Shown: piece after piece, positions 2 through 42,962 of the stretch
Numbering within the stretch: position 1 is the stretch's first letter
Layout: every line of letters starts with the position of its first letter
Assembly (NCBI GenBank): GCA_017544105.1
Contig: JAFYEU010000099.1
Span: forward strand, 763-64,762
Direction: 5' to 3'
DNA from: Bacteroidales bacterium
GTDB taxonomy: Bacteria > Bacteroidota > Bacteroidia > Bacteroidales > WCHB1-69
DNA length: 64,000 bases
Notes under the pieces: model-generated
The model's input: only the letters and a program-made list of their open reading frames with translations
Told to the model about the DNA's origin: nothing
Databases searched by the model: none
Position numbers and translations under genes: made by a program

Positions 2-3000
2 ACCATCGAGCAGTTGAGTGGTGCTGGTAACTGGTCCTTCCAAGAAGGTACGGGTGTCAATCCGGCCATCGCTCCTGTCTATGGTACGGGACGTCTCTTC
101 TTCAACTCCAAGACTTTTGCCAATGCCACGCAGTCTCGCGCCATCATGCCGGTGGTGCAGCTGACCAATGCTGTGAACCCCATCTTGGAAATGTGGTTCG
201 CCCATGACAATGTCTCCAATAAGACATTGGAGGGTGTTACCGTGAAGATCTCCACCGACGGTGGCAACACCTTCACCAACCTTATTCCGCAAGGACAGAC
301 GACTGCTCTTGTGAAACGTTATCAGAATACGGCCACCACGCCTACGTGGACGCTTTACACCTATGACCTTTCCAACTATGTGTCCTCCGGATGTGTCTAT
401 ATCGCCTTCGACGCCTATTCCCAGGCTGGTAACAATATCAACATCGACCGTATTCGTTTGAGAAGTCTCTTCGACAACGACCTGGCGGTGACCAACATCT
501 ATGCCCAGGGTGAGACTCCTGCGCAGCTGGGTATGGGTAATGTGATTAGTGCGTTGGTACGTAACGAGGGTTATCAGACCCAGACCAATGCCAAGGTGTA
601 CTTGACCGTTACCGGTGCCACCGAGACCTATACCGACTCGTTGACGATTCCTTCCTTGGCTTCCGGAGCTGAAACGCTGGTGACCTTCCCGGATCATCAC
701 TACAACGTGACCGAGGTTAAGAATGTGGAGGTGCGTTCCCGCAATGACCAGCACAATGTGAACAATGCTCAGAATTGGCGTATGGTGACGACCACCAACA
801 TCGCCAACTATGCCGACACCTCTGAGGTGGGCCTGATGACGGGTGATTACAACAACGTCATTCGTCCTTGTGTCCGTTACAAACTGGCCGAGCCGTTGTG
901 TGTGACTGCCGTGAAGTACTATTATGACAACACCTATATTGCCAATCCTTCCAACGGCATGAGAGCCTTTGTCTCCAATGCAGCTGGTGAGATTGTGGCT
1001 ACTTCTGCCCTTGTCGATTTCGAGTCCTTGCAACAAGGTGCTTGGAACATCATCCCGATTGAGAACTTCGCTTTGACCAATATGAGCGGTGAGTTTTATG
1101 TGGGTATCGAGATGCTCTCCAATGGTGACTATCTCTGTTCCCAGATTGAGACCCCACTTCGTGATTCCACCTTCTTCTATCTGGCTAATGGTGTTTACAC
1201 GCCGCAGACCTTCGGTCGTTTCATGATCGGTGCGCAGGTGGATACTCCGTATGTTAAGGATATGGCACTGCTGGAAGTGTTGAATCCGACCACCCGTTGC
1301 GATTTGGGACACGAGAATATTACGATAGCCATCACCAATAACGGCTTCGAGCCTGTGCCAGCCGGTACGATCTTCCATTATTCAGTGAATGGTTTGCCTA
1401 CTGTTACAGATACGATGCAGACTGCCCTGGCCCCTCATGCAACCTCTGAGTTCGCCTTCCCGACTATTTTTGACTTCACCAACCAATTGGTGGACATTGA
1501 TAGCAACTATCACATCAGAGTTTGGATTGACCAAGTGACAGGAGACCGTCTGCAATTCAACGATACTATTGTGGTTGACATTGTCTCCATCGGCAAGTCT
1601 CACACACCGATTGTGACAAGCCCTGTGAACATTTCTTACTCTACTTCTGGTGTCTTGACGGCGCAGTTGCCTTCCACCATCCAGACGGGTGAGATTGGCT
1701 GGTATGCGAGCACAGGCTATGAGTCTTGGGAGTTGCTGACCTATACCAATAACTTCACTACACCGGTTATCTACTTTGATACCACCTTCTATGCCACCGC
1801 TAATCCAGGATTCATCTTTGACACGATTGTGGGTAATGGTACTTTGACAGGTACGCAGCCGTTCTTCTTTACCAATGGCTACTCTCGTGGTCGTATCCTC
1901 TATACCGCCGATGAGATTGGTATGCATGGACCTATCACCAGCATCGGATTGTATGTGACTTCGGCTTCCAATGCCACCGCATCTGCCGGTATCCCGATCA
2001 AATTGTACATGAAGACTACGGATCAGAATACCTTCCCGACCACGGCTAGCTTCAACTGGAACGACGACATCAATGGCGCCACGCTGGTATATGATGGTCG
2101 TATCTATTTCAACCAGACGGGTTGGTTTATGATCCCGCTCATGCACTCCTTTGATTTCGATGCTGACAACCTGATAATCTTTACCGAGACCAACTGTGCA
2201 GACTACTGTACTGGCACGGGTTCCCAGTGTAACAACTGTGGCGCCTATGTGTCTGGTGGTGCCAGCTACCCGGTCTTCCAAATGACCACGGTCTCCAATG
2301 GTCTTGTCCAATATAAGAATGCCAATACGGAGACGATGACGGGTACCTACACCAACTATGCAAGACGCTTGAACATGCGTTTCAAGATTGCCAATCTGGA
2401 GTGTGGTAGTGAAAAGATTCCAGTTCATATACATGTGCCTGACATCCCGACCTACGATGTGCAGACGATGGAATTGGTATCCCCGATGGGTGGTTGCGCC
2501 ATGGCTGCCGATGAGCATATCCAAGTCAATGTGAAGAACCTCTTGAATACTGCTATCCCGGCGAATAAGGTTGTGGTTTATGCCACGTTCAATGGTACTA
2601 CAATCAGCCATACGGTGGATGAGCCTTTCGCTCCTGAAGAGTTGAAGACGGTGACCTTTACCGCTCCGTTTAACTTTACCGCTCCTACCGCTAACGTGAC
2701 CTTCAACTACACGATTTATACGGATATGCCTACCGAAACAGTGGTGTACAGAGGCAATGACACCATCACGGGTCAGTTAGTCTCTACCTATACCGCTCCG
2801 CTGCTCAACGAGTATAACTATACAGGCAACTACACGCAGACGATTGATATCTTGAAACCTGAGCATCGTCTGAGCAATGTGACGCAATACTATTTCTATG
2901 CTAACGAGAATGATGCGACGCCGATTCATACGACTAACACGGCCACTCCGTATTATACCACGCCTGCTTTGTATGACTCTGTGACCTATTGGGTGGCTGG

Positions 3001-6000
3001 TAAGACTCAGTCGAGCAACTGTACCACCAGCAGAAAACCGATTCACATCAATGTGTTCCGTCCGCAATATGACTTGATCACCAATGAGCTGGTGGCTCCG
3101 GTTTCCTATCAGTGCGGTCTTCCGAACAGTCCGCAGTTGCAGGTGAATGTGGGTAATACGGATACTACCTCCACCTCTGTGATCCCGGCCGGAACCTTCA
3201 ACCTGACGGCCAACTTCACAGGTACCCACACGGCCACAGGCACCTCTTCTGTCAACGTGCCTATCTCCTCATTGCAAAATGCCACTGTCACCTTTGCCAA
3301 CGGTATCAACATTGGATCTACCACGCAGAACAACTCCTATACCTATCATATTTATAGTAACCCTGCAAGCTCTATGGGTGTGTATCGTTTGAACGACACC
3401 ATCTCCGGGCGCTTGTATATCCCTGCCAACCCGGTGGCTCCTCCGGCCTTGACCTACACGGCCACGTATGGTATGCCTTATACCATCACCCCGAACAGCA
3501 ATGTCTTGGATTACTATTATTTCTATCAGAACGAGAATGACAACACCCCGATTGGCCAAGGTAGTTCCTTCACGACCGATCCTGTTTACTCCTCTCCGAT
3601 GGTATTATACTACAGCGGACGTATTGAGGATGATGACTTTGACACTTTGGTTCAAGTGGGTACGGGTACTTCCGGACAGTCTTATCCGTTCACCTTCACC
3701 AATGGTCACTCCTATGCCAAGATTCTGTACTCGGCTTCTGAAGTCGGCCCTGCCGGTAGAATTGACACCTTGTTCTTCTCTGTGCAGACTGCGAATACCA
3801 GCGGTTCTTCCATTCCTGTGAAGATGTGGTTGAAGAACCATACGGCAGACATGGATCAGATTGCCAATGCTGCCACCTCCATCAACTGGAACAACGAGAC
3901 GAATGGCGCCACGTTAATCTTCGACGGCGAGTTGGATTTCGCCACCCTCAACTGGTTCGCCATCCCTGTTCCTGGCGGTTTCGACTATAATGGCAAGGCT
4001 CTCTTCCTCTATGTGGAGCACAACTGTGGCGATGCCAGCTGTGTGACGAACAACGGTATCAACCCGGTGCCGAAGTTCCACAACACCTCCATCCAGAAGA
4101 AAGTGCTCTACAAGGCTCAGAATACGGCCCTGACGGCTGCTTCTTCCTTCGCTTTGCAGAACAACCGTTGGAACACCCGCTTCAAGATGAGCTATACTTG
4201 TGAGTCTCCAAAGTCAACCATCACCATCAACACCAATGTTCCGCAACATGATGTGGGTGTGATTGCCATCAACACGCCGGTGACTCCTAGCAATACCTAC
4301 ACAGCCACCAATCCGGTACAAGTGGTGATCAAGAACTTCGGTACCCAAGCCGCTTCCAACTTCCCAGTTTCTTACCAGTTGGCCAACGGCACGCCTGTCA
4401 GCCAGAACTACACAAGCTCTTTGGCTGCCGGTGCCACCGCCACGGTGAACTTCACCACTTCTTGCGATTTGAGCACCATTTACTATGATACTCCTTTCAA
4501 AGCTTACACGGGTCTTACCAGCGATACCTATCATGGCAACGATACCACGACCATTATGGTTCGCAAAGAGGATCCTTGTATCTCCCGTCCGTTGTCGCTG
4601 GCTACTGGCGCAGACATCTCCAATGTGACCTTCGCTGGTATCAACAATGGCCCGGGTACACCGTACACCAACTACACTCCTGCCAGTGACGGACTTTATA
4701 CGGACTACACAGGCACGGTTGCTGCTGGCGAGTTGGTGCAAGGACAGACCTACCAGTTGGCTGTCACGCACTCCTTCACCGCCACGGCTACGGCTACGGT
4801 CTATAAGACGGTCTATGTGGACTACAATCGCAATGGCGTCTTCGAGACCAACGAGCAGATCTTCACTTCCGGTGCCGTGCCGGCTGGCCAAGCCAACGCC
4901 ACCACTAACGCTACCATTGTTGTGCCGACCACCACGGCTCTCGGCCTTACCCGCATGCGCGTCATCTGTGCTGCTGGCAACTATACCAGTGCTTGTGGTA
5001 CCTACAACTATGCCGGTGAAACCGAAGACTATGCTATCCTCCTGTCTCCGCCTGTGACGACCGATATGGGTATTGTGAACTTCATCCACCCGGTGGGCAA
5101 TGTTTGCCAGGACAACAATGCAACCGTACGCGTCAGAGTGAGAAACTATGGCTCACAAACACAGACCTTATCCATGGACAATCCGCTGACCCTGAACCTG
5201 ACTGTCGCAGGTGCTGCTACGGGTAACTATACTACCAGCTTGACCTCTGGTACCTTCCAGCCGTATGAGGATATCATCATGTCAATTGACAACGTTAACT
5301 TGGGTGCTGCTGGTGATTATACCTTGAATGCATCTATTACCTATAGTGGCGACCTCTATGTCTCCAATAACACTATGACAGGCAATGCTCATGTGGATGC
5401 CGGTGCCGCTACCATCCCTTATCTGGAGACCTTCGACTCCGGTACGGGTTCAGATGGTGAGTACTTCTTCACACCTGACTGGTCCGTGGATATGTCAGCT
5501 TCCAACTACAAGTGGGAAGTCTTCCAGGCTGCCAGCCCGAATGCCAACACCAATGGCGGTCCTGCTCATGATCATACGCAGGCAGGTACTGTCTTTGAGG
5601 CCTTCGGTCGCTATGCATCCGTCCAAGGTATCAGCGGTTCCAATAACGCTACCAAGTGGACCACCTTGACCTCCAAGTGTCTTAACCTGCACTATCAGAA
5701 CGGCTATCCTGCAGAGCTTTCCTTCTACAAGTATTTCACAGGACCGAACACCTCCAACTTCCAGATGATGGTGGAGGTCGGCTCCGGTGACAACTTTATC
5801 CCGTTGGATACCCTCACCAAAGCAGAAGGCGAAATCGGCATTTGGACCAGATATGTCGTGGCTTTGACCGGTTACGATGAGGTGGGTCAGATCAGATTCA
5901 GAATGACTGGCCAAACCAATAAGATCGACCCGTCCATCGATGATGTCCATGTGACACCGGGCCTTCCGGATCTTGCAGTTGAGAAGGTGGTTTATCCGTA

Positions 6001-6610
6001 TGACTTCAACGATCCTGAGCATCAGGGTGAGTGTTTGTCCTTAACCGATACCGTACATCCTATTGTCCGCTTCTACAACAATGGTGACTCTCCGATCTCC
6101 GAGTTTGATGCTATGAGCGAACTGGCCGTCGGCGTCGTGAAAGATACGATTGTTGAGCATGTGGTGGTCACTATCCTGCCGGGTGAGTATTATGACTATG
6201 AGTTCACACAGGGCTTTGTCGTTCCGGAGAATGTTTATCACTGTCAGATTGCGGCCTTCGCTATTATCGACCTGGATAAAGATCTTACGAACAACACCAA
6301 GCGTGTGATTCCTTGTACTTCCTTGGATGTTCCGAATTACGAAGCCGAAGAGGGTATCGTGTTGTATCAAAACATGCCGAACCCGGCCGAGAACCAGACT
6401 ACCATCGTCTGCTTGCTTCCGGATTATGGCAAGGCAACCCTGCAGATCTATTCCGCAATGGGTCAGCTGCTCTACACGGATGCTCAAGACGGCGTCTTTG
6501 GTCAGAACCAATTCGAAGTCAAGACTTCTGACTGGTCTGCTGGTGTGTACTACTACACGTTGACATTCAAGAACGCTACGTTAACCAAGAAGATGGTTAT
6601 CCAAAAATAA
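2..6610 (+). CDS. Giant T9SS-sorted cell-surface/adhesin-like protein, 5' end off-window
   Basis: The frame is open from nt 2 to the stop at 6608-6610 (>2198 aa). CARDB-like Ig modules are present (DLAVTNIYAQ...VRNEG, HDVGVIAINTP...IKNFG). Two paralogous modules of about 240 aa lie at nt ~1690-2440 and ~3510-4250 (GT.TG.QP/YPF.FTNG.S...ILY.A.E.G). A GEVED-type motif (AGETEDYAI) is at ~5013-5040. A MAM-like domain is at ~5410-5960 (PYLETFDSG...GPAHDHTQ...IDDVHVT). The last ~85 aa look like a T9SS C-terminal sorting domain (YQNMPNPA...GVYYYTL...KKMVIQK). Confidence 0.85.
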   Translation, partial: TIEQLSGAGNWSFQEGTGVNPAIAPVYGTGRLFFNSKTFANATQSRAIMPVVQLTNAVNPILEMWFAHDNVSNKTLEGVTVKISTDGGNTFTNLIPQGQTTALVKRYQNTATTPTWTLYTYDLSNYVSSGCVYIAFDAYSQAGNNINIDRIRLRSLFDNDLAVTNIYAQGETPAQLGMGNVISALVRNEGYQTQTNAKVYLTVTGATETYTDSLTIPSLASGAETLVTFPDHHYNVTEVKNVEVRSRNDQHNVNNAQNWRMVTTTNIANYADTSEVGLMTGDYNNVIRPCVRYKLAEPLCVTAVKYYYDNTYIANPSNGMRAFVSNAAGEIVATSALVDFESLQQGAWNIIPIENFALTNMSGEFYVGIEMLSNGDYLCSQIETPLRDSTFFYLANGVYTPQTFGRFMIGAQVDTPYVKDMALLEVLNPTTRCDLGHENITIAITNNGFEPVPAGTIFHYSVNGLPTVTDTMQTALAPHATSEFAFPTIFDFTNQLVDIDSNYHIRVWIDQVTGDRLQFNDTIVVDIVSIGKSHTPIVTSPVNISYSTSGVLTAQLPSTIQTGEIGWYASTGYESWELLTYTNNFTTPVIYFDTTFYATANPGFIFDTIVGNGTLTGTQPFFFTNGYSRGRILYTADEIGMHGPITSIGLYVTSASNATASAGIPIKLYMKTTDQNTFPTTASFNWNDDINGATLVYDGRIYFNQTGWFMIPLMHSFDFDADNLIIFTETNCADYCTGTGSQCNNCGAYVSGGASYPVFQMTTVSNGLVQYKNANTETMTGTYTNYARRLNMRFKIANLECGSEKIPVHIHVPDIPTYDVQTMELVSPMGGCAMAADEHIQVNVKNLLNTAIPANKVVVYATFNGTTISHTVDEPFAPEELKTVTFTAPFNFTAPTANVTFNYTIYTDMPTETVVYRGNDTITGQLVSTYTAPLLNEYNYTGNYTQTIDILKPEHRLSNVTQYYFYANENDATPIHTTNTATPYYTTPALYDSVTYWVAGKTQSSNCTTSRKPIHINVFRPQYDLITNELVAPVSYQCGLPNSPQLQVNVGNTDTTSTSVIPAGTFNLTANFTGTHTATGTSSVNVPISSLQNATVTFANGINIGSTTQNNSYTYHIYSNPASSMGVYRLNDTISGRLYIPANPVAPPALTYTATYGMPYTITPNSNVLDYYYFYQNENDNTPIGQGSSFTTDPVYSSPMVLYYSGRIEDDDFDTLVQVGTGTSGQSYPFTFTNGHSYAKILYSASEVGPAGRIDTLFFSVQTANTSGSSIPVKMWLKNHTADMDQIANAATSINWNNETNGATLIFDGELDFATLNWFAIPVPGGFDYNGKALFLYVEHNCGDASCVTNNGINPVPKFHNTSIQKKVLYKAQNTALTAASSFALQNNRWNTRFKMSYTCESPKSTITINTNVPQHDVGVIAINTPVTPSNTYTATNPVQVVIKNFGTQAASNFPVSYQLANGTPVSQNYTSSLAAGATATVNFTTSCDLSTIYYDTPFKAYTGLTSDTYHGNDTTTIMVRKEDPCISRPLSLATGADISNVTFAGINNGPGTPYTNYTPASDGLYTDYTGTVAAGELVQGQTYQLAVTHSFTATATATVYKTVYVDYNRNGVFETNEQIFTSGAVPAGQANATTNATIVVPTTTALGLTRMRVICAAGNYTSACGTYNYAGETEDYAILLSPPVTTDMGIVNFIHPVGNVCQDNNATVRVRVRNYGSQTQTLSMDNPLTLNLTVAGAATGNYTTSLTSGTFQPYEDIIMSIDNVNLGAAGDYTLNASITYSGDLYVSNNTMTGNAHVDAGAATIPYLETFDSGTGSDGEYFFTPDWSVDMSASNYKWEVFQAASPNANTNGGPAHDHTQAGTVFEAFGRYASVQGISGSNNATKWTTLTSKCLNLHYQNGYPAELSFYKYFTGPNTSNFQMMVEVGSGDNFIPLDTLTKAEGEIGIWTRYVVALTGYDEVGQIRFRMTGQTNKIDPSIDDVHVTPGLPDLAVEKVVYPYDFNDPEHQGECLSLTDTVHPIVRFYNNGDSPISEFDAMSELAVGVVKDTIVEHVVVTILPGEYYDYEFTQGFVVPENVYHCQIAAFAIIDLDKDLTNNTKRVIPCTSLDVPNYEAEEGIVLYQNMPNPAENQTTIVCLLPDYGKATLQIYSAMGQLLYTDAQDGVFGQNQFEVKTSDWSAGVYYYTLTFKNATLTKKMVIQK

Positions 6611-6681: not shown

Positions 6682-7929
6682 ATGATGAAGATACTGAGAT
6701 TGGCAATGATATGCCTGATGTTTTTCGGTGCTGCGCAGGCGCAAGTGAGACCGGGTGCGTGGCGTATAGACCGTTATTTACCCCTGCTGGAGGGCAAGCG
6801 TGTGGCAGTGTGCGGCAACCAGACCTCGTTGGTGGATACCTGCCGCTATGAAACCCTTTCTGCCGACTCCAGTGTACTCCGTATCGACTGCTCCTGTGAG
6901 ACCAACAAGTCTGCTGAAATGCCGCATCTGGTGGATGTCTTGTTGGCGAACAAGGTACAGGTGGTCAAGATCTTCTGTCCGGAGCACGGTTTCCGGGGCA
7001 ATGCCGAGGCGGGTGCCCATATCGCCTCTGGCGTGGACGAGCGCACGGGTCTCCCCATCATCTCCCTCTATGGTAACAACAAGAAGCCGCAACCTGCTCA
7101 ACTGCAAGATGTGGATGTCATTGTCTTCGATTTGCAGGATGTGGGCTGCCGTTTTTACACCTACATCTCCACGCTGCATTACGTGATGGAGGCTGCGGCC
7201 GAACATGGCGTGGAGGTCATCGTCTTGGACCGTCCCAACCCGAATGGCTACTTTGTGGACGGACCGGTGCTCCAACCCAAGTGGCGTTCGTTTGTGGGCA
7301 TGCACCCCGTACCTGTGGTCTATGGCATGACGATAGGGGAGTACGCCTTCATGATTAATGGGGAAGGATGGCTCTCCGAAGGGCGGAAGTGTGATTTGAC
7401 GGTGGTTCCCATCAGCGGATATACCCATCAGACACGTTACACGCTCCCCGTGCGGCCGTCGCCGAACTTGCCTAATGACGAGTCAATATACCTCTACCCA
7501 TCCCTCTGTTTCTTTGAGGGTACCAACGTCAGCATCGGGCGGGGCACGGACTATCCATTCCAGCTCTATGGTTCCCCCTCTTTCACGAAGGGCGACTATA
7601 CCTTCACCCCGAAGCCCATAAAGGGTGTGTCGGAGAACCCTCTCTGCAAAGGACAACTCTGCCGGGGCTATTTCCTCTATTCCTATGCCCATGATTCTCT
7701 GCAGGGATCGAACAGCCTCAATCTGGAGTACTTGCTCAATGCCTACCAGTGTACGCCCGACAAGAGTACCTTCTTTACCAATGCCGCCTTCTTTGACAAG
7801 CTGGCGGGCACCGACCAGTTGCGGAAGCAAATCATACAGGGCCTCACGGAAGAGCAGATCCGTGCCTCTTGGCAAGCCGATCTGGACCGCTTCAAGGAGG
7901 TCAGAGCCAAGTACTTACTTTATGAGTAA
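6682..7929 (+). CDS. namZ: DUF1343 family exo-beta-N-acetylmuramidase (NamZ-like)
   Basis: Has a signal peptide. Strong DUF1343 hallmarks are present: KRVAVCGNQTS, FCPEHGFRGNAEAG, ISLYGNNKKP, VFDLQDVGCRFYTYIST, VLDRPNPNG, FVGMHPVP, PSPNLPN, FFEGTNVSIGRGT. Confidence 0.9.
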   Translation: MMKILRLAMICLMFFGAAQAQVRPGAWRIDRYLPLLEGKRVAVCGNQTSLVDTCRYETLSADSSVLRIDCSCETNKSAEMPHLVDVLLANKVQVVKIFCPEHGFRGNAEAGAHIASGVDERTGLPIISLYGNNKKPQPAQLQDVDVIVFDLQDVGCRFYTYISTLHYVMEAAAEHGVEVIVLDRPNPNGYFVDGPVLQPKWRSFVGMHPVPVVYGMTIGEYAFMINGEGWLSEGRKCDLTVVPISGYTHQTRYTLPVRPSPNLPNDESIYLYPSLCFFEGTNVSIGRGTDYPFQLYGSPSFTKGDYTFTPKPIKGVSENPLCKGQLCRGYFLYSYAHDSLQGSNSLNLEYLLNAYQCTPDKSTFFTNAAFFDKLAGTDQLRKQIIQGLTEEQIRASWQADLDRFKEVRAKYLLYE

Positions 7930-7976
7930 GGGAACATGAAGTAAGGGGTCGGAGCAAATTGCGTCAATACTGAGGG

Positions 7977-8016
7977 GTAAGAAACTAAGAAATTAAGAAA
8001 CTAAGAAGTTAAGAGG
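7977..8016. repeat. Tandem degenerate octamer tract (5 x 8 nt, NTAAGAAR)
   Basis: gtaagaaa ctaagaaa ttaagaaa ctaagaag ttaagagg in the intergenic region after namZ. A GTCAAA hexamer mini-tract follows at 8083-8099. Confidence 0.85.
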
Positions 8017-8107
8017 GTTTAGCTTCTTAGCTCCTTCATGGGTCACTCCAAAAGCCTTGGAACGAGAAATTGCGAGGTGATTGTCAAAGTCAAAGTCACT
8101 TGGTTCG

Positions 8108-8338
8108 TTAATAGTCCTCCTCGTCAAAATCCTTTTTAGCCCAACACCAGAATGCTCCAAACAGTACGATGGGTACGATTAACCACCAGTCCTGAAGGAT
8201 GTCAGACCAACTTTGAGGTCCCATTCCTAGAAAGCTGAAATAGTGCGTGGGAAGGACGATGATGCAAAAACTAAGTACCAGCATTAGAAAGAAATACAAC
8301 CACTTCTTTGTCTTTTTGCTCATTTTTTTCTTTTTCAT
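8108..8338 (-). CDS. Small two-TM membrane protein, unknown function
   Basis: 76-aa ORF with a Lys-rich N-terminus and two hydrophobic helices. No recognisable family. Confidence 0.4.
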   Translation of the reverse strand: MKKKKMSKKTKKWLYFFLMLVLSFCIIVLPTHYFSFLGMGPQSWSDILQDWWLIVPIVLFGAFWCWAKKDFDEEDY

Positions 8339-10081: not shown

Positions 10082-10132
10082 AATTATTATCTGTTATCTG
10101 TCATCTATAATCTATTAACCCTATACCCTCAT

Positions 10133-26810: not shown

Positions 26811-26863
26811 GATTAGGAGTTGTTGGGTGGGAGGTGAGGGAGTTAGAAGTTAGGCAAAGTGAG
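26811..26863. repeat. Heptamer-periodic GTT-anchored tract
   Basis: gattagg agttgtt gggtggg aggtgag ggagtta gaagtta ggcaaag. On the minus strand this reads CTAACTT CTAACTC ... . It sits exactly at the truncated 3' end of the RT remnant. Confidence 0.7.
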
Positions 26864-28155: not shown

Positions 28156-28260
28156 CAGGCATGTCGGAGGTGTGCGGGGGACGACACGATGGGCGAGCGG
28201 CCGTTTGCGGATAACGCGTGCAGATGGGCGGAATCCCCGTGAATTGAGGGGGCGATTGGG
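28156..28260. repeat. G-rich module related to the island-flanking repeat (shares ggaggtgtgcggg)
   Basis: caggcatgtcGGAGGTGTGCGGGggacgac... shares the 13-mer ggaggtgtgcggg, preceded by the same c, with 38119-38130 in the left inverted repeat. The segment aattgagggggcgattggg resembles the unit found beside heptamer tracts elsewhere. Confidence 0.5.
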
Positions 28261-28480
28261 AGTTAGATAATAGTTAATAGTTATGGGTAGTTCGGGGCTA
28301 ACAGCTAATAGCAAACGGCCAAAGTTCAAAGTTCAATGTCAAGGTTAGGAGGTTAGAAGGTTAAAAGGTTAGCGGGTTAATGGGTCAAAGTTCAATGTCA
28401 ACGTCAAGGTTATGGTTTTGACGGCCAACAGCCAACAGCTAATGGCCAACGGCCAACAGCCAACAGCCAAAGTTCAAAGT
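28261..28480. repeat. Composite 7-/8-nt periodic tract array (AGTTNNN, GGTTARNN, GCCAACN, AAAGTTC)
   Basis: agttaga taatagt taatagt tatgggt agttcgg ggctaac agctaat; ggttagga ggttagaa ggttaaaa ggttagcg ggttaatg; ccaacag ccaacag ctaatgg ccaacgg ccaacag ccaacag. The aaagttcaaagttcaatgtcaa motif occurs three times. Confidence 0.85.
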
Positions 28481-29408: not shown

Positions 29409-30515
29409 ATGTACGACAACGATAAAAGAATAGTGGTGACTATGGATGCCGGCGGTACCTTCTTCCGCTTCGGTGCCATTCAAGGCAACAAACCTATGAT
29501 GGAAGAGATTACTTTCCCTTCCGAATCGCGTAATCTTGAAAAATGTCTGAACACCATCGTGAACGGCTTCGGGGCTGTCATGTCCCGCCTGCCGGAGAAG
29601 CCCGTGGCTATCAGCTTCGCCTTCCCGGGACCGGCCGACTATCCCAACGGCATCTTCCCGACCCTGCTGACCAACTTCCCCTGCTTTGCGGAGGGAGTGG
29701 CGCTGGGACCGTTCCTCGAGTCTAAGTTCAACCTGCCGGTCTTCATCAACAACGATGCCGACCTCTTCACCTATGGCGAAGCCCTGGAGGGCCTGCTGCC
29801 CCATGTGAACAGCGTGCTCAAAGAGCGGGGCAGCGCCAAGGTCTATCGCAACATGGTCGGCTTTATCCTCGGCACCGGCTTTGGCATCGGCATCACGACC
29901 AACAACCAGATGTATATCGGCGACAACTGCTGCTCCGAGATCTACTGCACCCCCAATAAGCTGGAACCCGAGCTGATCGTGGAGGAGGGCGTGTCGGCGC
30001 GTGCCGTGCTGCACAACTACCGCCTCTTTGCCAACGATCCCAAGGCGGCCGACTATACCGACTCGTACGACATCTACCAGATTGCCGACGGCACCAAACC
30101 TGGCGACCAGGCAGCGGCGCTGAAGGCCTTCGCCCGTTTCGGAGAGGTGGCCGGCAACACCATCGCCAACGCTGTCTGTATGCTCGATGGCATCATCGTC
30201 CTGGGTGGTGGCGTCTCCAAATCGCACAAGATCTATATGCCTGCCCTGCTGCGCGAACTGCGTACGAAACTGACCACCCGCACCGGCATCGCCATCCAGC
30301 GCGTGCCCTCCTACGTCTATAACCTGGAAGACGAGGCCGAACTCGACCGCTTCATCCAAGGCGAACAACGCGAGATCCCCGTCTTCGGCACCGACCGTAC
30401 CGTGAAGTGCGATGTCCAGAAACGCCTCGCCATCGGCATCTCCCGTCTGGGCACTACACAGGCCACGACCATCGGCGCCTACTGCTTCGCCCTCCATAAA
30501 CTCGACGAAAAATAG
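29409..30515 (+). CDS. ROK family sugar kinase/regulator-like protein
   Basis: DAGGT phosphate-1 motif (VTMDAGGTFFRFG), ISFAFPGPADY, INNDADLFTYGEA and GTGFGIG. Confidence 0.8.
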   Translation: MYDNDKRIVVTMDAGGTFFRFGAIQGNKPMMEEITFPSESRNLEKCLNTIVNGFGAVMSRLPEKPVAISFAFPGPADYPNGIFPTLLTNFPCFAEGVALGPFLESKFNLPVFINNDADLFTYGEALEGLLPHVNSVLKERGSAKVYRNMVGFILGTGFGIGITTNNQMYIGDNCCSEIYCTPNKLEPELIVEEGVSARAVLHNYRLFANDPKAADYTDSYDIYQIADGTKPGDQAAALKAFARFGEVAGNTIANAVCMLDGIIVLGGGVSKSHKIYMPALLRELRTKLTTRTGIAIQRVPSYVYNLEDEAELDRFIQGEQREIPVFGTDRTVKCDVQKRLAIGISRLGTTQATTIGAYCFALHKLDEK

Positions 30516-30557
30516 CCAACGGCTAATAGCCAATGGCCAATAGCCAACAGCTAACAG
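30513..30557. repeat. Heptamer tract (RGCYAAY x6) filling the ROK-ABC intergenic gap
   Basis: agccaac ggctaat agccaat ggccaat agccaac agctaac. It runs from the ROK stop codon to 2 nt before the ABC ATG. Confidence 0.85.
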
Positions 30558-37974: not shown

Positions 37975-38171
37975 GGGAGTAAGTGCAGTTAGGAGTTGTC
38001 AGTTTTCAGTTTGGAGTTAGCAGTTAATGGGGATGGCGGGGGCGTAGTGTGTATGGCGCAGGCCGTAGGTCTGCAGGTTTTGGTAGCCAAGGAGCCGCAC
38101 GGGCCCAATCGCACGCCGGAGGTGTGCGGGCGGTATGTCGGGGCGGGGTGTGCATTGCGGGGGCAAATGTA
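37975..38171. repeat. Left inverted-repeat element (IR-L): heptamer tract + unit + 78-bp GC core + unit + outward-facing -7 box
   Basis: The heptamers agttagg agttgtc agttttc agtttgg agttagc agttaat occupy ~37988-38029. The core at 38061-38138 is the reverse complement of 42858-42935 (74/78 by eye). Nt 38008-38061 are the reverse complement of 41093-41146 (53/54). caaatgta at 38164-38171 gives tacatttg on the minus strand. Confidence 0.85.
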
Positions 38172-38376
38172 GGAATTTTCAGAGACAATAGATTGCTTTA
38201 GATATTATTTTTAGAATTTTCCACGTTGAACTTATAGTTTTAATAAATAAGATGAAAAAATGATGGAAGAATCTTGAATGTACTTGTGTTGATTTTTCCT
38301 TTTAAAAAGGTAATGATATAGATGTTGACCAAAAAAAGACAAATAAGACCGGCATGATGCTCTCTACAATCATACG

Positions 38377-38429
38377 GTGGCACTTCCGTGCCACGAGGCG
38401 CCAATTCCCCTTCTGATTCTCAGAAGGGG
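38377..38429. other. Two adjacent perfect hairpins in a small GC-rich islet
   Basis: Hairpin 1: gtggcac-ttcc-gtgccac (38377-38394). Hairpin 2: ccccttctga-ttc-tcagaagggg (38407-38429). Confidence 0.8.
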
Positions 38430-38582
38430 TGCCCAAAGGGCGGGGTAGTTAATATGGATTATAATTTCTTAATTTTCATGAAAGCTGCGGAGGATATTTC
38501 CTTGTTTCCGCTAGTGTGGGTAATGGCCATATTTCTCTGCTAAGGTATTCATATTTTTTATGTTACTGAACCGACTTTTTTC

Positions 38583-38590
38583 TATCTTTG
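38583..38590 (+). promoter_or_regulatory. Bacteroidota -7 box (tatctttg) inside the island
   Basis: TAnnTTTG match about 160 nt upstream of the lipoprotein gene at 38751. Confidence 0.45.
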
Positions 38591-38750
38591 CACCCGATAA
38601 AAGTGCTACACTTTTTAGTGACCAAATTAGTAAAGTTTTTAATGATTATATACAGCATATAGAGCAATGGAATTACACGGTATCTCAACGACAGCAACGC
38701 CTAGGGGATCTCTACACAGATAAACGTGTCAAACACAAAATGCATCACGA

Positions 38751-39299
38751 ATGAATAAGAGACTATCAATATTGCTGTTTTTAATCTGTCTTTGTGGCTG
38801 CAACCGGATTCCGGACAATCAAAGCATGCTTCTCACACTAACGCATGGGGAATACACTGTAGTGTTAAAGTCTGTGATTGAAAAAAACAATTATGATATT
38901 ATATGGAAAGAGTATGGTTTTTCGTATCCATATATTCTTTCTCAAGAATTGATTTTTTATCATAACGGGAAGCCTCTTAAGAGGCATGTCATACCTGTCC
39001 CTAAACGCCAATTTGTGATTAATAGCAGAAAAGTTCATTTTCTAAAAACACCAATATTTGACATCGAACTGTTGCAGGGAGCAGATAATCTGTATGTGCA
39101 TTTATATGGTGCAAATTATTGTTGTGGTATTTCTTGTCCAGAATTCAATGGCCTATATCTGCTTGACGGAACGATTATTTCAGAATGCATATCCGTTATG
39201 GGTCAACCACTTAATGGGAAGAATATTGACGAAATAGGGGTTGATATCAATAACCCCATAAAACGAAAATCTATGTACACAATATTTAAGCCGCTATAA
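38751..39299 (+). CDS. Hypothetical lipoprotein (candidate orphan immunity protein)
   Basis: Lipobox LICLCGC, AT-rich, and the first gene of the toxin/immunity island. No cognate toxin lies upstream. Confidence 0.5.
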   Translation: MNKRLSILLFLICLCGCNRIPDNQSMLLTLTHGEYTVVLKSVIEKNNYDIIWKEYGFSYPYILSQELIFYHNGKPLKRHVIPVPKRQFVINSRKVHFLKTPIFDIELLQGADNLYVHLYGANYCCGISCPEFNGLYLLDGTIISECISVMGQPLNGKNIDEIGVDINNPIKRKSMYTIFKPL

Positions 39300-39382
39300 A
39301 AACATCTTTGTCTAAGTTAGTTCTTTTTTCGTACTTTCGCTCCATTTAAGATATTTTTCGTACTTGTCACTCCGACAAATAA

Positions 39383-39635
39383 TAATGGCCACTTACCAGT
39401 CATATTATCCTCCTCTCTTCCCCGCGCGAAGCCTTCTCTCCTGCGCCAAACACGCCACATCCGCTCCACCACCCTCAACTGCTCACTGTTCACTGCTCAC
39501 TGTTCACTGGATTTACACCTTCTCCGCCCAAGAACGCGACTCCGAGACGGGATTAAGCTACTTCGGCTCACGGTATTATAGCAGCGACTTGAGCATCTGG
39601 CTCAGCGTGGACCCGATGAGTGACAAATATGCAAG
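39383..39635 (+). repeat. Cassette-head direct repeat, copy 1
   Basis: Homologous to 41031-41297. It carries a conserved ATG, a Pro/Ser-rich GC segment (cccgcgcgaagcc..ctcctgcgccaaacac...), a heptamer tract (actgctc actgttc actgctc actgttc) and then the rhs core coding sequence up to gacaaatatgcaag. Confidence 0.8.
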
Positions 39636-40254
39636 CACTTCTTCATACGCATATTGTAGGAATCAACCCATAATTTTGGTAGATCCTAATGGCAAATTTG
39701 ACACGCGTGCTGAAGCAAGGCAATATCGAAAAGAGCATCATACTGGAGGAAAAATCCACAAGCGATCTGAGAAAGATACTTTTTCGGGTAATTATTTAAT
39801 AGATAACAAAAGAACACGAACGAGTTATACAAAACCGAAAAATCACGATGAATCCGATAGTCCAACTATAGGACTAGACAACGTAGGGGTGGTTTCTTCG
39901 CCAATGATTCTTTACAAACAATCAAATTCCAAAGCAAATAATATACTGTCTTCAGACGCCACTACTTGTCTGCTAATTACATCTGACGATTGGACTGGTT
40001 TTGGAATTGCAGATGATGTTGCAATACCGATAATATTATCAACAGCAATAATCACGGCAGGTGTGATAAAGTTACAGGATTTCATATTAATGTCACAACA
40101 TGGTGTGAACAATGATAAACTCACTACTGATGAAAGAAAGATCCTTGAAGAAAAGGAACGTAATAATACTATCTCGCCTACTGAAAAACAAAAACTGAAA
40201 AAAGACAGAAAAAACAGAGGATTAATACATTCTAGACAAAGTAAGGACAAATAA
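39385..40254 (+). CDS. Orphan RHS-core C-terminal fragment fused to an unclassified toxin-like C-terminal domain
   Basis: The RHS repeat-associated core tail reads YTFSAQERDSETGLSYFGSRYYSSDLSIWLSVDPMSDKYASTSSYAYCRNQPIILVDPNG. A unique ~190-aa tail follows, with one hydrophobic helix (VAIPIILSTAIITAGVI) and a Lys-rich end. I placed the start at ATG 39385, which is conserved with cassette 2. No YD-repeat shell is present. Confidence 0.6.
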   Translation: MATYQSYYPPLFPARSLLSCAKHATSAPPPSTAHCSLLTVHWIYTFSAQERDSETGLSYFGSRYYSSDLSIWLSVDPMSDKYASTSSYAYCRNQPIILVDPNGKFDTRAEARQYRKEHHTGGKIHKRSEKDTFSGNYLIDNKRTRTSYTKPKNHDESDSPTIGLDNVGVVSSPMILYKQSNSKANNILSSDATTCLLITSDDWTGFGIADDVAIPIILSTAIITAGVIKLQDFILMSQHGVNNDKLTTDERKILEEKERNNTISPTEKQKLKKDRKNRGLIHSRQSKDK

Positions 40255-40271
40255 AACAATATATCGATCTC

Positions 40272-40913
40272 ATGAAAAAAAAACAAGAGTCAAATCTTCT
40301 AACTTCTAAAGAACGTATAGCAAACAATAAAGGTGTTTCAAATAAGAAACTAGTGTCCCTTTTGCATAAGATGTCTTATGCTGACTTGGGTGATTATTTA
40401 TTGACAAATAAACAATTTTCAAAGGATAACATTGTTATAATAAAACAATTTATTATAGAACATTTGGACAATCCAAATAGGCTTTTTGTTTCAGATTTAA
40501 TAGATTTTTCTATTATTTACAACATTGAATTGCCTTATAAAAAATGTATTGATTTCCTAAATAAATATGGTGGTGACGATGATTATGTTCAAATGTCATC
40601 CATAGATTACCTTTTTTACAACCTAAAGTGTTCCTTTTTTCCAATAATTATTGAAAGAATGATTCAAATTACAAGCAATCCCAAATCCCATGTAGCTTCT
40701 AGAATACGTTCCGCATTCTTTTTGTATCGACATACTCATCGTGAAAGATTTTTATTGGATTTAGTATCCTTTGTTAAAAGAGATTCCTATTATGAGGATC
40801 TTCTAATGAATTTATTGTCAGTTGAGTATAATTCTATCGAATTTTTCCCTGATTCAAAACGTATTCTTGAACTTATTGGTAGAAAATACCAAATTCAATA
40901 TCATCAACAATGA
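40272..40913 (+). CDS. Candidate cognate immunity protein (cytoplasmic, alpha-helical)
   Basis: Lies 17 nt after the toxin ORF, is AT-rich and has no signal peptide. The call rests on position only. Confidence 0.45.
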   Translation: MKKKQESNLLTSKERIANNKGVSNKKLVSLLHKMSYADLGDYLLTNKQFSKDNIVIIKQFIIEHLDNPNRLFVSDLIDFSIIYNIELPYKKCIDFLNKYGGDDDYVQMSSIDYLFYNLKCSFFPIIIERMIQITSNPKSHVASRIRSAFFLYRHTHRERFLLDLVSFVKRDSYYEDLLMNLLSVEYNSIEFFPDSKRILELIGRKYQIQYHQQ

Positions 40914-40940
40914 ACAACTAGCGCTCTCAGAGTATAATAG

Positions 40941-41917
40941 CCTAGACGTAATAATTATTTTAATACCTTTCTCTTCGACACCCAATCCTATATCTTCAAG
41001 ATGGAGTACGAATACGACTCATACAACCGCATAACAATGAACCCTCACCCACCATATCCCTCCTCTCCCTCCCCCGCGCGAAGCCTCCCTTCCTGCGCCA
41101 AACACACTACGCCCCCGCCATCCCCATTAACTGCTAACTCCAAACTTCTAACTCCTAACTGGTTTTACACCTTCTCCGCCAAAGAAAAGGACGTTGAAAC
41201 CGGCCTAAGCTACTTTGGCTCACGCTATTACAGCTCCGATCTGAGCATCTGGCTGAGCGTGGACCCGATGAGTGACAAATATGCAAGTTTATCGCCCTAT
41301 AATTATTGCGCCAATAACCCGGTGAAGTTGGTGGACCCGAATGGGGAAGAGTGGGAAACTCCTGAAGATGCTAACTATGCACAACATCCATTTCCATAGC
41401 TCAAACGCGACAAAAACAGTATGACCCATCGAGCAGGGAGTATAAACTTTTGCAAGAAGGAATTGATGGATTGATTTCTATGGGTAAGGAAAAGGGGCAG
41501 AAATATACTTTTAACAAGTCATTGCTGGCAACTGGCAATGTGTCCAGACAAGAAAGCGGGACAATAAGTATTAACTACATTGAAGATAATAGTAATGAGT
41601 ATTTGAAAGATGGATCTGCATGGCATGAAGCGTTTCATCTATCTCGTAGAAATGCTTGGAAGACACTGTCCTGCAACGAAAGACGCAATGCCGCTACACA
41701 ATACTGGGGGTTTGATGAGAATGGTTTCTTGTTTAGCGACAACAATTGTGATGAAGAGTATATGGCATATCGGTCCCAGATGGCATTTTCTCCACAAAGT
41801 ATGCCACACCTCCCACTAGGGCAAGTTGACAACAATGAAAGTATTCAATTGTATGTCGCTTCTAAATACAAGAAAGAATGCTGTGACCACAAGTTTCGAC
41901 TTCCATCTATAAAATGA
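40941..41917 (+). pseudogene. Orphan RHS-core fragment + HExxH metallopeptidase-like toxin domain, interrupted by a frameshift
   Basis: YD-repeat end EYEYDSYNRIT, then the core tail FYTFSAKEKDVETGLSYFGSRYYSSDLSIWLSVDPMSDKYASLSPYNYCANNPVKLVDPNGEEW. The frame stops at 41397-41399. Another frame is open from 41375 and continues as ...ISIAQTRQKQYDPSSREYKLLQEGIDGL...SAWHEAFHLSRRNAW... to 41917. Confidence 0.65.
41031..41297 (+). repeat. Cassette-head direct repeat, copy 2
   Basis: Homologous to 39383-39635. Its heptamer tract is ttaactg ctaactc caaactt ctaactc ctaactg. Nt 41093-41146 are the reverse complement of 38008-38061 (53/54). Confidence 0.8.
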
Positions 41918-41927
41918 AGAATAAAAA

Positions 41928-42746
41928 ATGATAAAGAGATTTCTACTGTTTGGGCTATTGACATTCCTATGCATAAATACATTCTCCCAACAAGATAGCG
42001 TGATATTCAAAAGTTTGGGGTCATACTATGTATTCTATGCAGATGGAACATATAAATTGTTTAATATTCCGTGTGACATATGCCCTCCGTATGCTGACAA
42101 CAACAATTTGATCAGTTTTGGGACATATATACCTTTTAAGAAGAAGGCATATTATCTTTATTCTGACAGTACGCTATCCAATGAGGTTAATGTAGTTGTG
42201 TCTGAAAGAACTGATAATAGCCCTAATCTGACTGTTAATATTTCCATGCCGGCTCAAAAAGACAGTTCGAACATGCTTCGGCCCCACTATTTTTACGCTC
42301 TGAGTGTAGATTACAAAAAGATTGACCAAGCTACTGCTGTTGACACGATGACATGGTTTGTTAAAGATTATTATCAGAGCAGTCCTCAGTTTGTACTTCC
42401 AAAAGATTCAAATCTCGCCCCATTGGGTTTTACCATAAGAATCTATCCTAAATCAAAGGTCTCTAGAAGGGCATATGCAGAAGCCAATTATGCTATAAAG
42501 GACAATACAGCCAATGTTTTTGACCTCTCTATTCCACAATTTGTCACAGGCTATCTTGATTATGAACTAATGTATAATTATAGGTTAGACCTATATGGCA
42601 AGAAAATAATAGGTGATCCTTCAACACAGACAGTATATGTGAGAGAGGACATATATAACAAACGAAATTATAGTGATTGGTATTTTCCTGTTCGTCCATC
42701 GTGGGAATACTGGACATTTCCCATATTACAATTGAATCATAAATAG
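41928..42746 (+). CDS. Secreted hypothetical protein (candidate immunity to the metallopeptidase-like toxin)
   Basis: Signal peptide MIKRFLLFGLLTFLCINTFSQQ. It starts 10 nt after the toxin ORF end and is AT-rich. Confidence 0.45.
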   Translation: MIKRFLLFGLLTFLCINTFSQQDSVIFKSLGSYYVFYADGTYKLFNIPCDICPPYADNNNLISFGTYIPFKKKAYYLYSDSTLSNEVNVVVSERTDNSPNLTVNISMPAQKDSSNMLRPHYFYALSVDYKKIDQATAVDTMTWFVKDYYQSSPQFVLPKDSNLAPLGFTIRIYPKSKVSRRAYAEANYAIKDNTANVFDLSIPQFVTGYLDYELMYNYRLDLYGKKIIGDPSTQTVYVREDIYNKRNYSDWYFPVRPSWEYWTFPILQLNHK

Positions 42747-42799
42747 TAAAATATGATAACAATATCCTATTCGACATCCTCTTCGAGACAAAAACATCT

Positions 42800-42962
42800 T
42801 TCCGCGCGAAGACTTACCTTTTGCGCCAACCGCGCTACACCCCTGCCATACGTAGATACATCCCGCCCGCACACCTACGGCGTGCGATTGGGCCCGTGCG
42901 GCTCCTTGGCTACCAATACCTGCAGACCCACGGCCTGCAATATGCGCGCCACACCATCACCC
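42800..42962. repeat. Right inverted-repeat element (IR-R): cassette-head-like segment + unit + 78-bp GC core + unit
   Basis: tccgcgcgaagacttaccttttgcgccaacc... resembles the heads of cassettes 1 and 2. The core at 42858-42935 is the reverse complement of 38061-38138. The element abuts the HMA gene stop at 42965. Confidence 0.85.

Follow-up and report, generated by a model that had tools for sequence, protein, structure and literature searches.

Why do two truncated rhs toxin genes, lying one behind the other, begin with the same piece of DNA, and why does this piece look nothing like rhs? The question is raised by a 64,000-nt stretch of a Bacteroidales genome (GCA_017544105.1, contig JAFYEU010000099.1; hereafter the window), in which two cassettes, each composed of a conserved Rhs core tail, a toxin-specific domain and a putative immunity gene, are each preceded by a GC-rich element with a tract of heptamer repeats, which we term a head. 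An initial annotation of the window regarded the heads as a dispersed intergenic repeat that had become part of the 5′ ends of independently startable toxin open reading frames (ORFs) or, alternatively, as the handle by which toxin tips are swapped onto an rhs gene elsewhere. Comparison with related loci confirmed the underlying observation in part and lent partial support to its interpretation. On the basis of these comparisons, the heads are probably the inter-cassette elements of a shufflon- or integron-like system of Rhs toxin/immunity cassettes in uncultured Bacteroidales of the rumen and hindgut.

Heads in the Window and in Related Loci

The direct repeats reported for the window were borne out by alignment. 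Positions 39379-39678 and 41031-41330 align without gaps over 300 nt at 73% identity, and both contain an in-frame ATG (39385 and 41037, with an extra one at 41001 in the second copy), a 48-nt GC module, a period-7 tract and the Rhs core tail, diverging, as had been described, where the toxin-specific part starts. A third window copy of the GC module was found at 42802-42849. The module copy that had been placed near 37975-38061 is a true relative, but an inverted one, and covers 37976-38171: 37994-38062 is 90% complementary to 41092-41160 (69 nt), 38041-38138 is 88% complementary to 42858-42955 (98 nt), and the BLAST cores of the inverted copies show 95-98% identity. Two further stretches, 26811-26863 and 28156-28300, had also been read as module copies; they yielded only 13- to 14-nt exact matches (E 0.05-0.2) or a 20-mer (nhmmer E = 1), and we rejected their homology to the heads, since the likeness is one of generic heptamer periodicity only. 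A 12-mer taken for a signal, aaaaacatcttt (39297 and 42788), occurs at chance level (E = 0.62). Period-7 tandem tracts (GCCAACA, TAGTTAA, AATAGCC, CTAACTN) are a general intergenic feature (10085-10117, 26811-26863, 28264-28470, 30511-30557) and often lie just 5′ of TAnnTTTG-like motifs or gene starts; the tract at 30511-30557 adjoins the ATG at 30559.

A tail-peptide scan of a genome collection identified 76 related loci, all from uncultured rumen or hindgut Bacteroidales, and the head layout recurs in them upstream of ~115 non-redundant Rhs C-terminal (CT) cassettes. Protein searches returned 1964 homologues of cassette 1, nearly all 170-400 aa in length, whose N-termini are translated GC and heptamer modules (e.g., PARSL.SCAKH, RPHTYGVR..C....ATEPCRPTAC, and the heptamer-derived LTANSKLLTPNW or HCSLLTVHW) located directly before (Y/H/F)TFSAKE. 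A homologue of 295 aa (P0004), whose GC head is of the typical Bacteroidales kind, bears the nr label Frisingicoccus sp. (Firmicutes), likely as a result of contamination of a metagenome-assembled genome (MAG) or of horizontal transfer.

Using tblastn, we detected 211 tails in 84 sequences. Twenty-eight of them follow an authentic Rhs core (...DHLGSS...HLHYLPWGEDFVNQ...), and ~163 follow non-core heads, every one of which ends at the same base, with the GC/heptamer part stopping one base before TACACCTTCTCCGC in all cases. The claim that this part is foreign to rhs stands, as all 25-28 core-type tails read ...LPWGED(F/Y)VNQ... before the joint and YTFSAKE after it. It also survived the test set for it beforehand, namely whether full-length Rhs proteins encode the Pro/Ser-rich segment at that position: none do, given that all core-type tails are preceded by authentic core. 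A hidden Markov model (HMM) of a second conserved block of the heads, module A (42858-42955, and 38041-38138 on the minus strand), detected 46 copies in ~1 Mb, 25 of them with a tail within 400 nt downstream. All copies are situated within arrays or in tail-less terminal heads at array ends, and those of the window are restricted to the cassette island. In both the 64-kb window and ~1 Mb of related loci, GC modules thus occur only in or beside cassette arrays, which does not agree with the proposed dispersed intergenic repeat and led us to reject as a class a dispersed repeat of the repetitive extragenic palindrome (REP) or miniature inverted-repeat transposable element (MITE) type.

Recombination Breakpoints at the Joint

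Alternative arrangements of cassettes occur among near-identical contigs, from different samples, and their breakpoints cluster at the joint between head and tail. The 11.3-kb centre of the locus, carrying recombinase and rhs, is 100% identical between the contigs compared. A single recombinase-proximal head (INTprox), invariant over 300 nt (0 mismatches), leads into different cassettes that first differ at +14 relative to the joint; a single GC head likewise precedes different cassettes, which first differ at +27; and the same cassettes (0-1 mismatch in 600 nt) are found behind unrelated upstream sequence, with divergence from -2. Three different cassettes follow one identical INTprox head, and a Logan unitig stops exactly at +14. 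An all-pairs scan produced 10 pairs with the same upstream sequence and different cassettes, seven of which diverge at -4 to +27 and the other three at +71 to +182.

A 3.4-kb block (block B: tail-M91 toxin-185 aa-head-P0107-272 aa-head) with 0-2 mismatches in four contigs or samples illustrates the exchange. It occupies the downstream arm in L004 and L006 and the upstream arm next to the recombinase in L095/L007 plus L005, and its breakpoints lie within 14-27 nt of the joint. One layout may have arisen from the other by two successive inversions between oppositely oriented joints or, alternatively, by excision and then integration at the symmetric site described below. Because the head always moves with the upstream immunity gene, we define the cassette as tail-toxin-immunity-head; the head, previously considered the 5′ end of the next toxin ORF, acts as the 3′ terminus of the cassette before it. 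The idea of a recombination handle was correct insofar as toxin tips are exchanged in the head/tail region, but the GC segment is not the handle: this role falls to the opening ~14-27 nt of the conserved tail, next to the joint, plus homologous recombination deeper in the tail.

Complete Loci, Recombinase and Palindrome

The rhs gene that had been expected elsewhere, full-length and with the same core, is present in related genomes together with a dedicated tyrosine recombinase, which in L007 spans 7125-8249. In these genomes (L001, L004), homologues of cassette 2 sit in the classical position, with a 3056- to 3060-aa Rhs protein (domains SpvB, TcdB_midN, FG-GAP, DUF6443 and RHS repeats) followed by its immunity gene and three head-separated orphans. 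The full locus, found in two genomes or species, starts with an upstream orphan array of opposite orientation and a recombinase-proximal head; then come the integrase gene, divergent from that array, a reversed LytTR gene and, in the direction of the integrase, a gene for a 149- to 163-aa protein, a DUF8202 gene, rhs, its immunity gene, the downstream orphans and a terminal head. Both arrays end in outward-pointing tail-less heads, and therefore the whole locus is bounded by inverted repeats, as is the island in the window. The DUF8202 protein has a C-terminal sorting domain of the type IX secretion system (T9SS). In L094 (12703-14761) and L099 (3977-6076), the 149- to 163-aa gene and the DUF8202 gene precede the giant rhs, and the LytTR regulator adjoins the recombinase; these neighbours hint at T9SS-linked delivery and regulated switching.

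The cassette adjacent to the recombinase has a distinct AT-rich head, INTprox, which carries a promoter-like motif of its own and, 57 nt 5′ of the joint, an in-frame ATG. All 21 heads of this type end in CTTTGCGGAGA, the inverted complement of the tail's TCTCCGCAAAG, and in each of the 21 a palindrome, CTTTGCGGAGA-N7-9-TCTCCGCAAAG, spans the joint and overlaps the tail start. An integrase gene or its remnant lies ~290 nt upstream, in divergent orientation, in 12 of the 21 genome loci, and an independent palindrome scan of metagenomes revealed an integrase or remnant at 11 of 17 true tails (9 of the 13 with enough upstream sequence). Across head types, conservation starts at -1 and continues into the tail, with an entropy of ~1.5-2.0 upstream of -1; at the joint of a GC head, the core and right arm are thus conserved, and the left arm is variable. 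Sites inverted around a segment with the constant gene body and recombinase were found in related loci only (L094+L004, L099+L001, L014, L057). We also asked whether synonymous sites at the start of the tail are conserved enough to prove a DNA site; the effect was only weak, and this argument was rejected. In one locus (L063, 9887-10119), two different Rhs tails, 78% complementary, stand head-to-head around the centre TTTGCGGAGAA-T-TACACG-TTCTCCGCCAAA; this arrangement would not be expected from legitimate inversion and may be an aberrant recombination product or the first origin of the symmetric recombinase-side site.

A competing explanation dispenses with the recombinase and views these units as classical orphan rhs-CT/immunity cassettes that move by homologous recombination only (C-terminal displacement), with heads that are inert founder filler and a joint that is fixed by common descent. 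The conserved 125-nt tail is indeed an obvious homology arm, chimeric tails with breakpoints at +71 to +182 exist, orphans lie downstream of full-length rhs in L001 and L004 as they do in enterobacteria, and some orphans have kept extra core sequence (L017 12903, L046 8455). However, this explanation does not readily accommodate crossovers within 14-27 nt of the joint when tails are only ~82% identical and the contigs otherwise clonal, nor a joint to a recombinase-proximal head without any upstream homology, nor the existence of a conserved palindrome and a syntenic recombinase; moreover, inert heads leave the frame conservation reported in the following section unexplained. We consider homologous recombination as the sole process rather unlikely.

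Open Frame and Nucleotide-Level Conservation of the Heads

The reading frame of the tail is kept open through the head. Among 115 non-redundant GC heads, the median run without a stop codon 5′ of the joint is 198 nt in the tail frame versus 49 and 44 nt in the other two; the tail frame is the longest in 83 heads (38 expected), and an in-frame ATG is present in 101, at a median distance of 183 nt 5′ of the joint. Nine different distances separate the end of module A from the joint, ranging from 46 to 157 nt and all equal to 1 mod 3, and this interval holds 7-nt repeats whose TAA would shut the other frames. Up to 60 nt upstream of the ATG, 58 of the 101 heads carry a TAnnTTTG-like motif (6.5% background), which we take to be the Bacteroidetes -7 promoter element. 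The notion of independently startable toxin ORFs holds with respect to an open frame with its own ATG and promoter-like motif, but not for cassette 2 of the window, which is frameshifted and not intact.

Conservation of module A is found at the nucleotide level. In 34 distinct ungapped copies, the entropy by codon position was 0.47/0.22/0.47 (permutation p = 0.14), and neither excess variation at third positions nor codon-level purifying selection on the module A peptide was detected in these copies. The terminal blocks of the module are invariant at all three codon positions, which argues that the peptide is unconstrained. The head frame is thus kept open, with the constraint acting at the level of DNA or RNA instead of the peptide. 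The invariant terminal blocks form two hairpins 52 nt apart, with the stems CGCAC/GTGCG and GCAG/CTGC and the same 9-nt loop ACCTACGGC; this pair could be a protein-binding element.

An open frame with a conserved ATG, and thousands of such proteins of 170-400 aa, would also be expected of stand-alone toxins that owe a functional N-terminal peptide, for instance a signal for secretion or loading, to the head, or, in a variant of this explanation, of toxins subject to phase variation through heptamer slippage. Yet the head peptide is mosaic, of low complexity, unconstrained and without a family match, and its third codon positions are not over-variable. Slippage is without support, because no length variant differs by a single heptamer; in addition, no out-of-frame alleles were observed among module-A heads, and the frameshift in the window, present in one of the two copies, lies in the toxin and not in the head. 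Stand-alone function in either form therefore appears improbable. Least probable of all is a genome-wide, non-coding REP- or MITE-like repeat that landed 5′ of truncated toxins and acquired its ORF as a by-product of stop-poor GC-rich DNA: the blocks are GC-rich, conserved at the nucleotide level and equipped with two hairpins sharing the loop ACCTACGGC, inverted copies flank the island and ordinary intergenic regions also have heptamer tracts, but the GC modules are absent outside the island (64 kb) and outside arrays (~1 Mb), the in-frame open stretch is fourfold longer than in the other frames, and all length variants are in frame even though TAA heptamer units would close two frames.

Proposed Mechanism

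Our preferred reading, in which the heads are inter-cassette elements of a cassette system, can be formulated as follows. A cassette would open at base 1 of the conserved Rhs tail (TACACCTTCTCCGC...), continue with the toxin domain and the immunity gene, and include the whole of the next head. One predicted role of the head is expression: with a -7 promoter-like motif, an ATG and a stop-free tail frame, displaced cassettes could be transcribed and translated alone and all immunity genes kept expressed, and stored immunity genes would have to be expressed if siblings are able to switch toxins. The second predicted role, suggested by the breakpoints and the site anatomy, is recombination. The 3′ end of the head would abut a recombination joint consisting of a conserved core and right arm, supplied by the first codons of the tail, and a non-conserved left arm; the tyrosine recombinase of the locus would act at this joint, with the switch point expected at TACACC/TTCTCCGC. 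Given a recombinase at a symmetric site and outward arrays flanking the ~3060-aa rhs, cassettes should be movable between arrays and presumably onto rhs, and the rhs gene itself may take part, as its junction carries the same core. Homologous recombination in the tail would operate alongside.

In its full form, this mechanism would constitute programmed toxin switching, in which the recombinase, acting on a ~20-bp site at the tail start that is symmetric at the recombinase and asymmetric at the cassettes and rhs, moves cassettes between arrays or onto the 3060-aa Rhs, while heads keep the stored cassettes expressed and siblings are spared. We regard the chances that such switching takes place as evenly balanced. 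Several points weigh against it, or against the broader reading. All comparisons rest on metagenome or MAG contigs, and the heads share ancestry, which makes them less independent than the frame statistics assume. The tail does undergo homologous recombination (the L006 chimera; breakpoints at +117 and +141), and the crossovers in the first 14-27 nt of the tail could themselves be rare homologous events or ends of gene-conversion tracts. Among the loci compared, no rhs body was found with two different tails attached at the joint. Approximately 40% of recombinase-proximal heads have no detectable integrase, and two are located mid-array (L013, L017); GC heads show no recognisable left arm; and the 64-kb window contains neither a full-length rhs gene nor, by tblastn, an integrase. 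Finally, fold energies of the heads were no better than those of shuffled controls (z-scores -1.8 to +1.4), the sense strand being notably unstructured, and alifold supported a single short hairpin (4-6 bp); stable structure in the heads was accordingly rejected.

If toxin switching of this kind exists, it would represent the first hybrid of shufflon and integron in the service of polymorphic toxins. Diversification of polymorphic toxin loci is thought to be slow and to proceed via homology-driven tip displacement; some gut bacteria would be able to reshuffle their contact-dependent weapons and antidotes fast and reversibly. The mechanism would join Rhs orphan arrays, rAID-type immunity arrays, shufflons and integrons, and would account both for the thousands of short "RHS repeat-associated core domain" proteins with Pro/Ser/Cys-rich N-termini in Bacteroidales MAG annotations and for assembly breaks at such loci. 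No description of an Rhs-linked recombinase or shufflon was found in the literature searched. The system is a variation on known kinds, and the site-specific recombination that we propose for it is testable.

Organization of the Window Array

The window carries an array without recombinase or rhs, consisting of two cassettes, one of them frameshifted, and remnants. Its features are as follows.

38046-42920, unstranded: segment present in the window and missing in the sister-strain contigs L084/L085 (contig comparison)
37976-38171, minus strand: inverted tail-less head at the left island edge, pointing outward from the array (repeat and profile matches); contains TACATTTG (38164-38171), ATGCACACC (38147-38155), module A (38041-38138), a B segment and a heptamer tract (37985-38026)
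38560-38754, plus strand: cassette 0 toxin remnant, C-terminal part only, partner of the next gene
38751-39299, plus strand: cassette 0 putative immunity gene, 182 aa, 94% identity to L011 9204-9752 (syntenic array)
39300-39513, plus strand: head 1, the 3′ end of cassette 0; contains promoter-like TACTTTCG (39332-39339), ATG 39385, the 48-nt GC module (39422-39469) and a heptamer tract (39478-39509)
39514-39636, plus strand: Rhs core tail 1 (YTFSAQERD...DPMSDKYAS); proposed crossover core TACACCTTCTCCGC at 39514-39527
39637-40254, plus strand: cassette 1 toxin-specific C-terminal domain; the ORF 39385-40254 is identical to protein P0001
40272-40913, plus strand: cassette 1 putative immunity gene, 213 aa, 28% GC
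40914-41165, plus strand: head 2, the 3′ end of cassette 1; contains TACCTTTC (40964-40971), ATG 41001 followed by YD-repeat-like MEYEYDSYNRIT, ATG 41037, the 48-nt GC module (41074-41121) and a heptamer tract (41128-41161)
41166-41288, plus strand: Rhs core tail 2; proposed core TACACCTTCTCCGC at 41166-41179
41289-41917, plus strand: cassette 2 toxin domain, a pseudogene frameshifted relative to intact P0073 / L001
41928-42746, plus strand: cassette 2 putative immunity gene, 272 aa; also present behind P0073 and P0107 in L001 and L004-L007
42753-42958, plus strand: terminal tail-less head; contains ATG 42753, the 48-nt module (42802-42849) and module A (42858-42955)

The two cassette ORFs, of 289 and 132 aa, match TIGR03696 from model position 16/17 to 75 (E 2e-16 and 7e-18). 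The core tail of each corresponds to the last ~60 residues of the RHS-associated core; the end of this core is thus retained, and the YD-repeat shell and N-terminal delivery region are absent. Compared with its 96%-identical intact homologue (P0073 / L001), the cassette 2 toxin has suffered a 1-nt deletion at ~41388 that causes the frameshift. The putative immunity ORFs at 40272-40913 and 41928-42746 start 18 and 11 nt after the toxins, with which they are also paired in L001 and L004-L007; profile searches yielded no family match for them. The AT-rich island has a GC content of 28-41% in toxin and immunity genes and 55-62% in heads, with ~53% for the genome. In L001, the counterpart of the terminal head runs on into a third cassette. 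The window array is a satellite array or else a main locus that has decayed, and most likely represents a reservoir of immunity and toxin genes.

Two sister-strain contigs (L084/L085) code for an identical flanking lipoprotein, with an HMA gene 416 nt away, and no island. This empty allele consists of window sequence up to 38045, 11 nt, and window sequence from 42921 onward, and it keeps heptamer and B-segment remnants on either side of a single copy of the second module-A hairpin. Because head remnants are kept, the empty allele resembles a scar more than a virgin site. Simple insertion of the island was rejected, as the flanks are inverted and not direct repeats and the empty allele retains remnants and one hairpin; the difference between occupied and empty alleles may reflect a deletion in the latter or an insertion in the former. 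The second module-A hairpin is the exact point at which the two alleles diverge. At the same chromosomal position, a related MAG (L011) carries seven different cassettes and has only the immunity gene at 38751-39299 in common with the window.

Between the inverted head and cassette 0 lies an AT-rich stretch of ~460 nt (38189-38650) with two strong hairpins (38380-38397 and 38410-38432); within it, 38403-38470 is 87% identical to L063 4397-4463. The opening of head 2, MEYEYDSYNRIT (41001-41036), resembles a YD-repeat remnant, and the same motif opens the heads at L013 1838 and L014 13124 and those of P0006 and P0010.

Relation to Known Systems

Orphan rhs-CT/rhsI arrays of Enterobacteriaceae (e.g., Salmonella) show C-terminal displacement (PMC3967940). 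As in our loci, a toxin domain and an immunity gene come after truncated fragments in which the last part of the core survives; the fragments form a row behind a full-length rhs, and exchange takes place at the conserved core end (PMC3967940). The position downstream of a full-length rhs of the same orientation was found in L001 and L004 and not in the window. In contrast to the enterobacterial orphans, the fragments described here are all cut at the same base, behind a frame-keeping GC/heptamer head; arrays of opposite orientation lie on both sides of rhs, breakpoints cluster at the joint, and a tyrosine recombinase with a palindromic joint site belongs to the locus.

The recombinase-associated acquired interbacterial defence clusters (rAID-1) of Bacteroidales are described as immunity-only arrays downstream of, and co-oriented with, a recombinase, and Rhs tails are not mentioned in those descriptions (bioRxiv 10.1101/471110; PMC12247911). 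The host order, a tyrosine recombinase beside co-oriented short low-GC genes, repetitive intergenic sequence and the stockpiling of orphan immunity genes are shared with the loci studied here. At least two co-oriented short genes below 41% GC with repetitive intergenic motifs are present (cassette genes, 28-41%); a XerD-family recombinase directly upstream is absent from the window, and in related loci the integrase is present but divergent. Judged by these descriptions, our loci differ in having a toxin tip and Rhs tail in each unit, a divergent recombinase and a giant rhs gene as a further component. Homologues of the recombinase at ~40% identity are ordinary prophage or mobile-element integrases, and we rejected them as a route to rAID-1.

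In the R64 shufflon (Rci, sfx), the core and right arm of a site are conserved and its left arm varies, and symmetric sites also permit excision (PMC11852207). The likeness extends to the tyrosine recombinase and to multiple sites placed so as to join alternative C-terminal segments to a constant gene body (PMC11852207), to the conserved core with one arm, the other being variable, which was also found here, and to the inversion of segments, which for our loci is suggested by contig comparisons. Unlike the shufflon, the system described here has 1.5- to 2-kb toxin/immunity cassettes as cargo, not pilin tips, a symmetric master site beside the recombinase and, presumably, an expression head for each segment.

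Integrons (IntI, attI, Pc, attC) likewise have a recombinase divergent from a proximal site that gives the first cassette a promoter (predicted here) and start codon, and co-oriented cassettes that each end in a repeat element; their integrase-less arrays, clusters of attC sites lacking integron integrases (CALINs), resemble the window array. However, the recombinase scores only 30 bits against the IntI model TIGR02249 (cutoff 265), and the heads have no attC-type R''-L''/L'-R' symmetry or significant folding, with crossover occurring within coding sequence; identity with integrons was rejected because the recombinase is not of the IntI type and an attC-like fold is missing from the heads.

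A known RNA family and a tRNA-derived attachment (att) site were rejected as explanations of the island, where Rfam and ARAGORN show none: at gathering threshold, Rfam identified only the small signal recognition particle RNA, which marks the genome as that of a member of the Bacteroidales, and one tRNA in the window, and the single tRNA found by ARAGORN lies far from the island. Unrelated to the island, an ORF of 2198 aa at positions 14-6610 of the window encodes GEVED and CARDB domains and a T9SS sorting tail.

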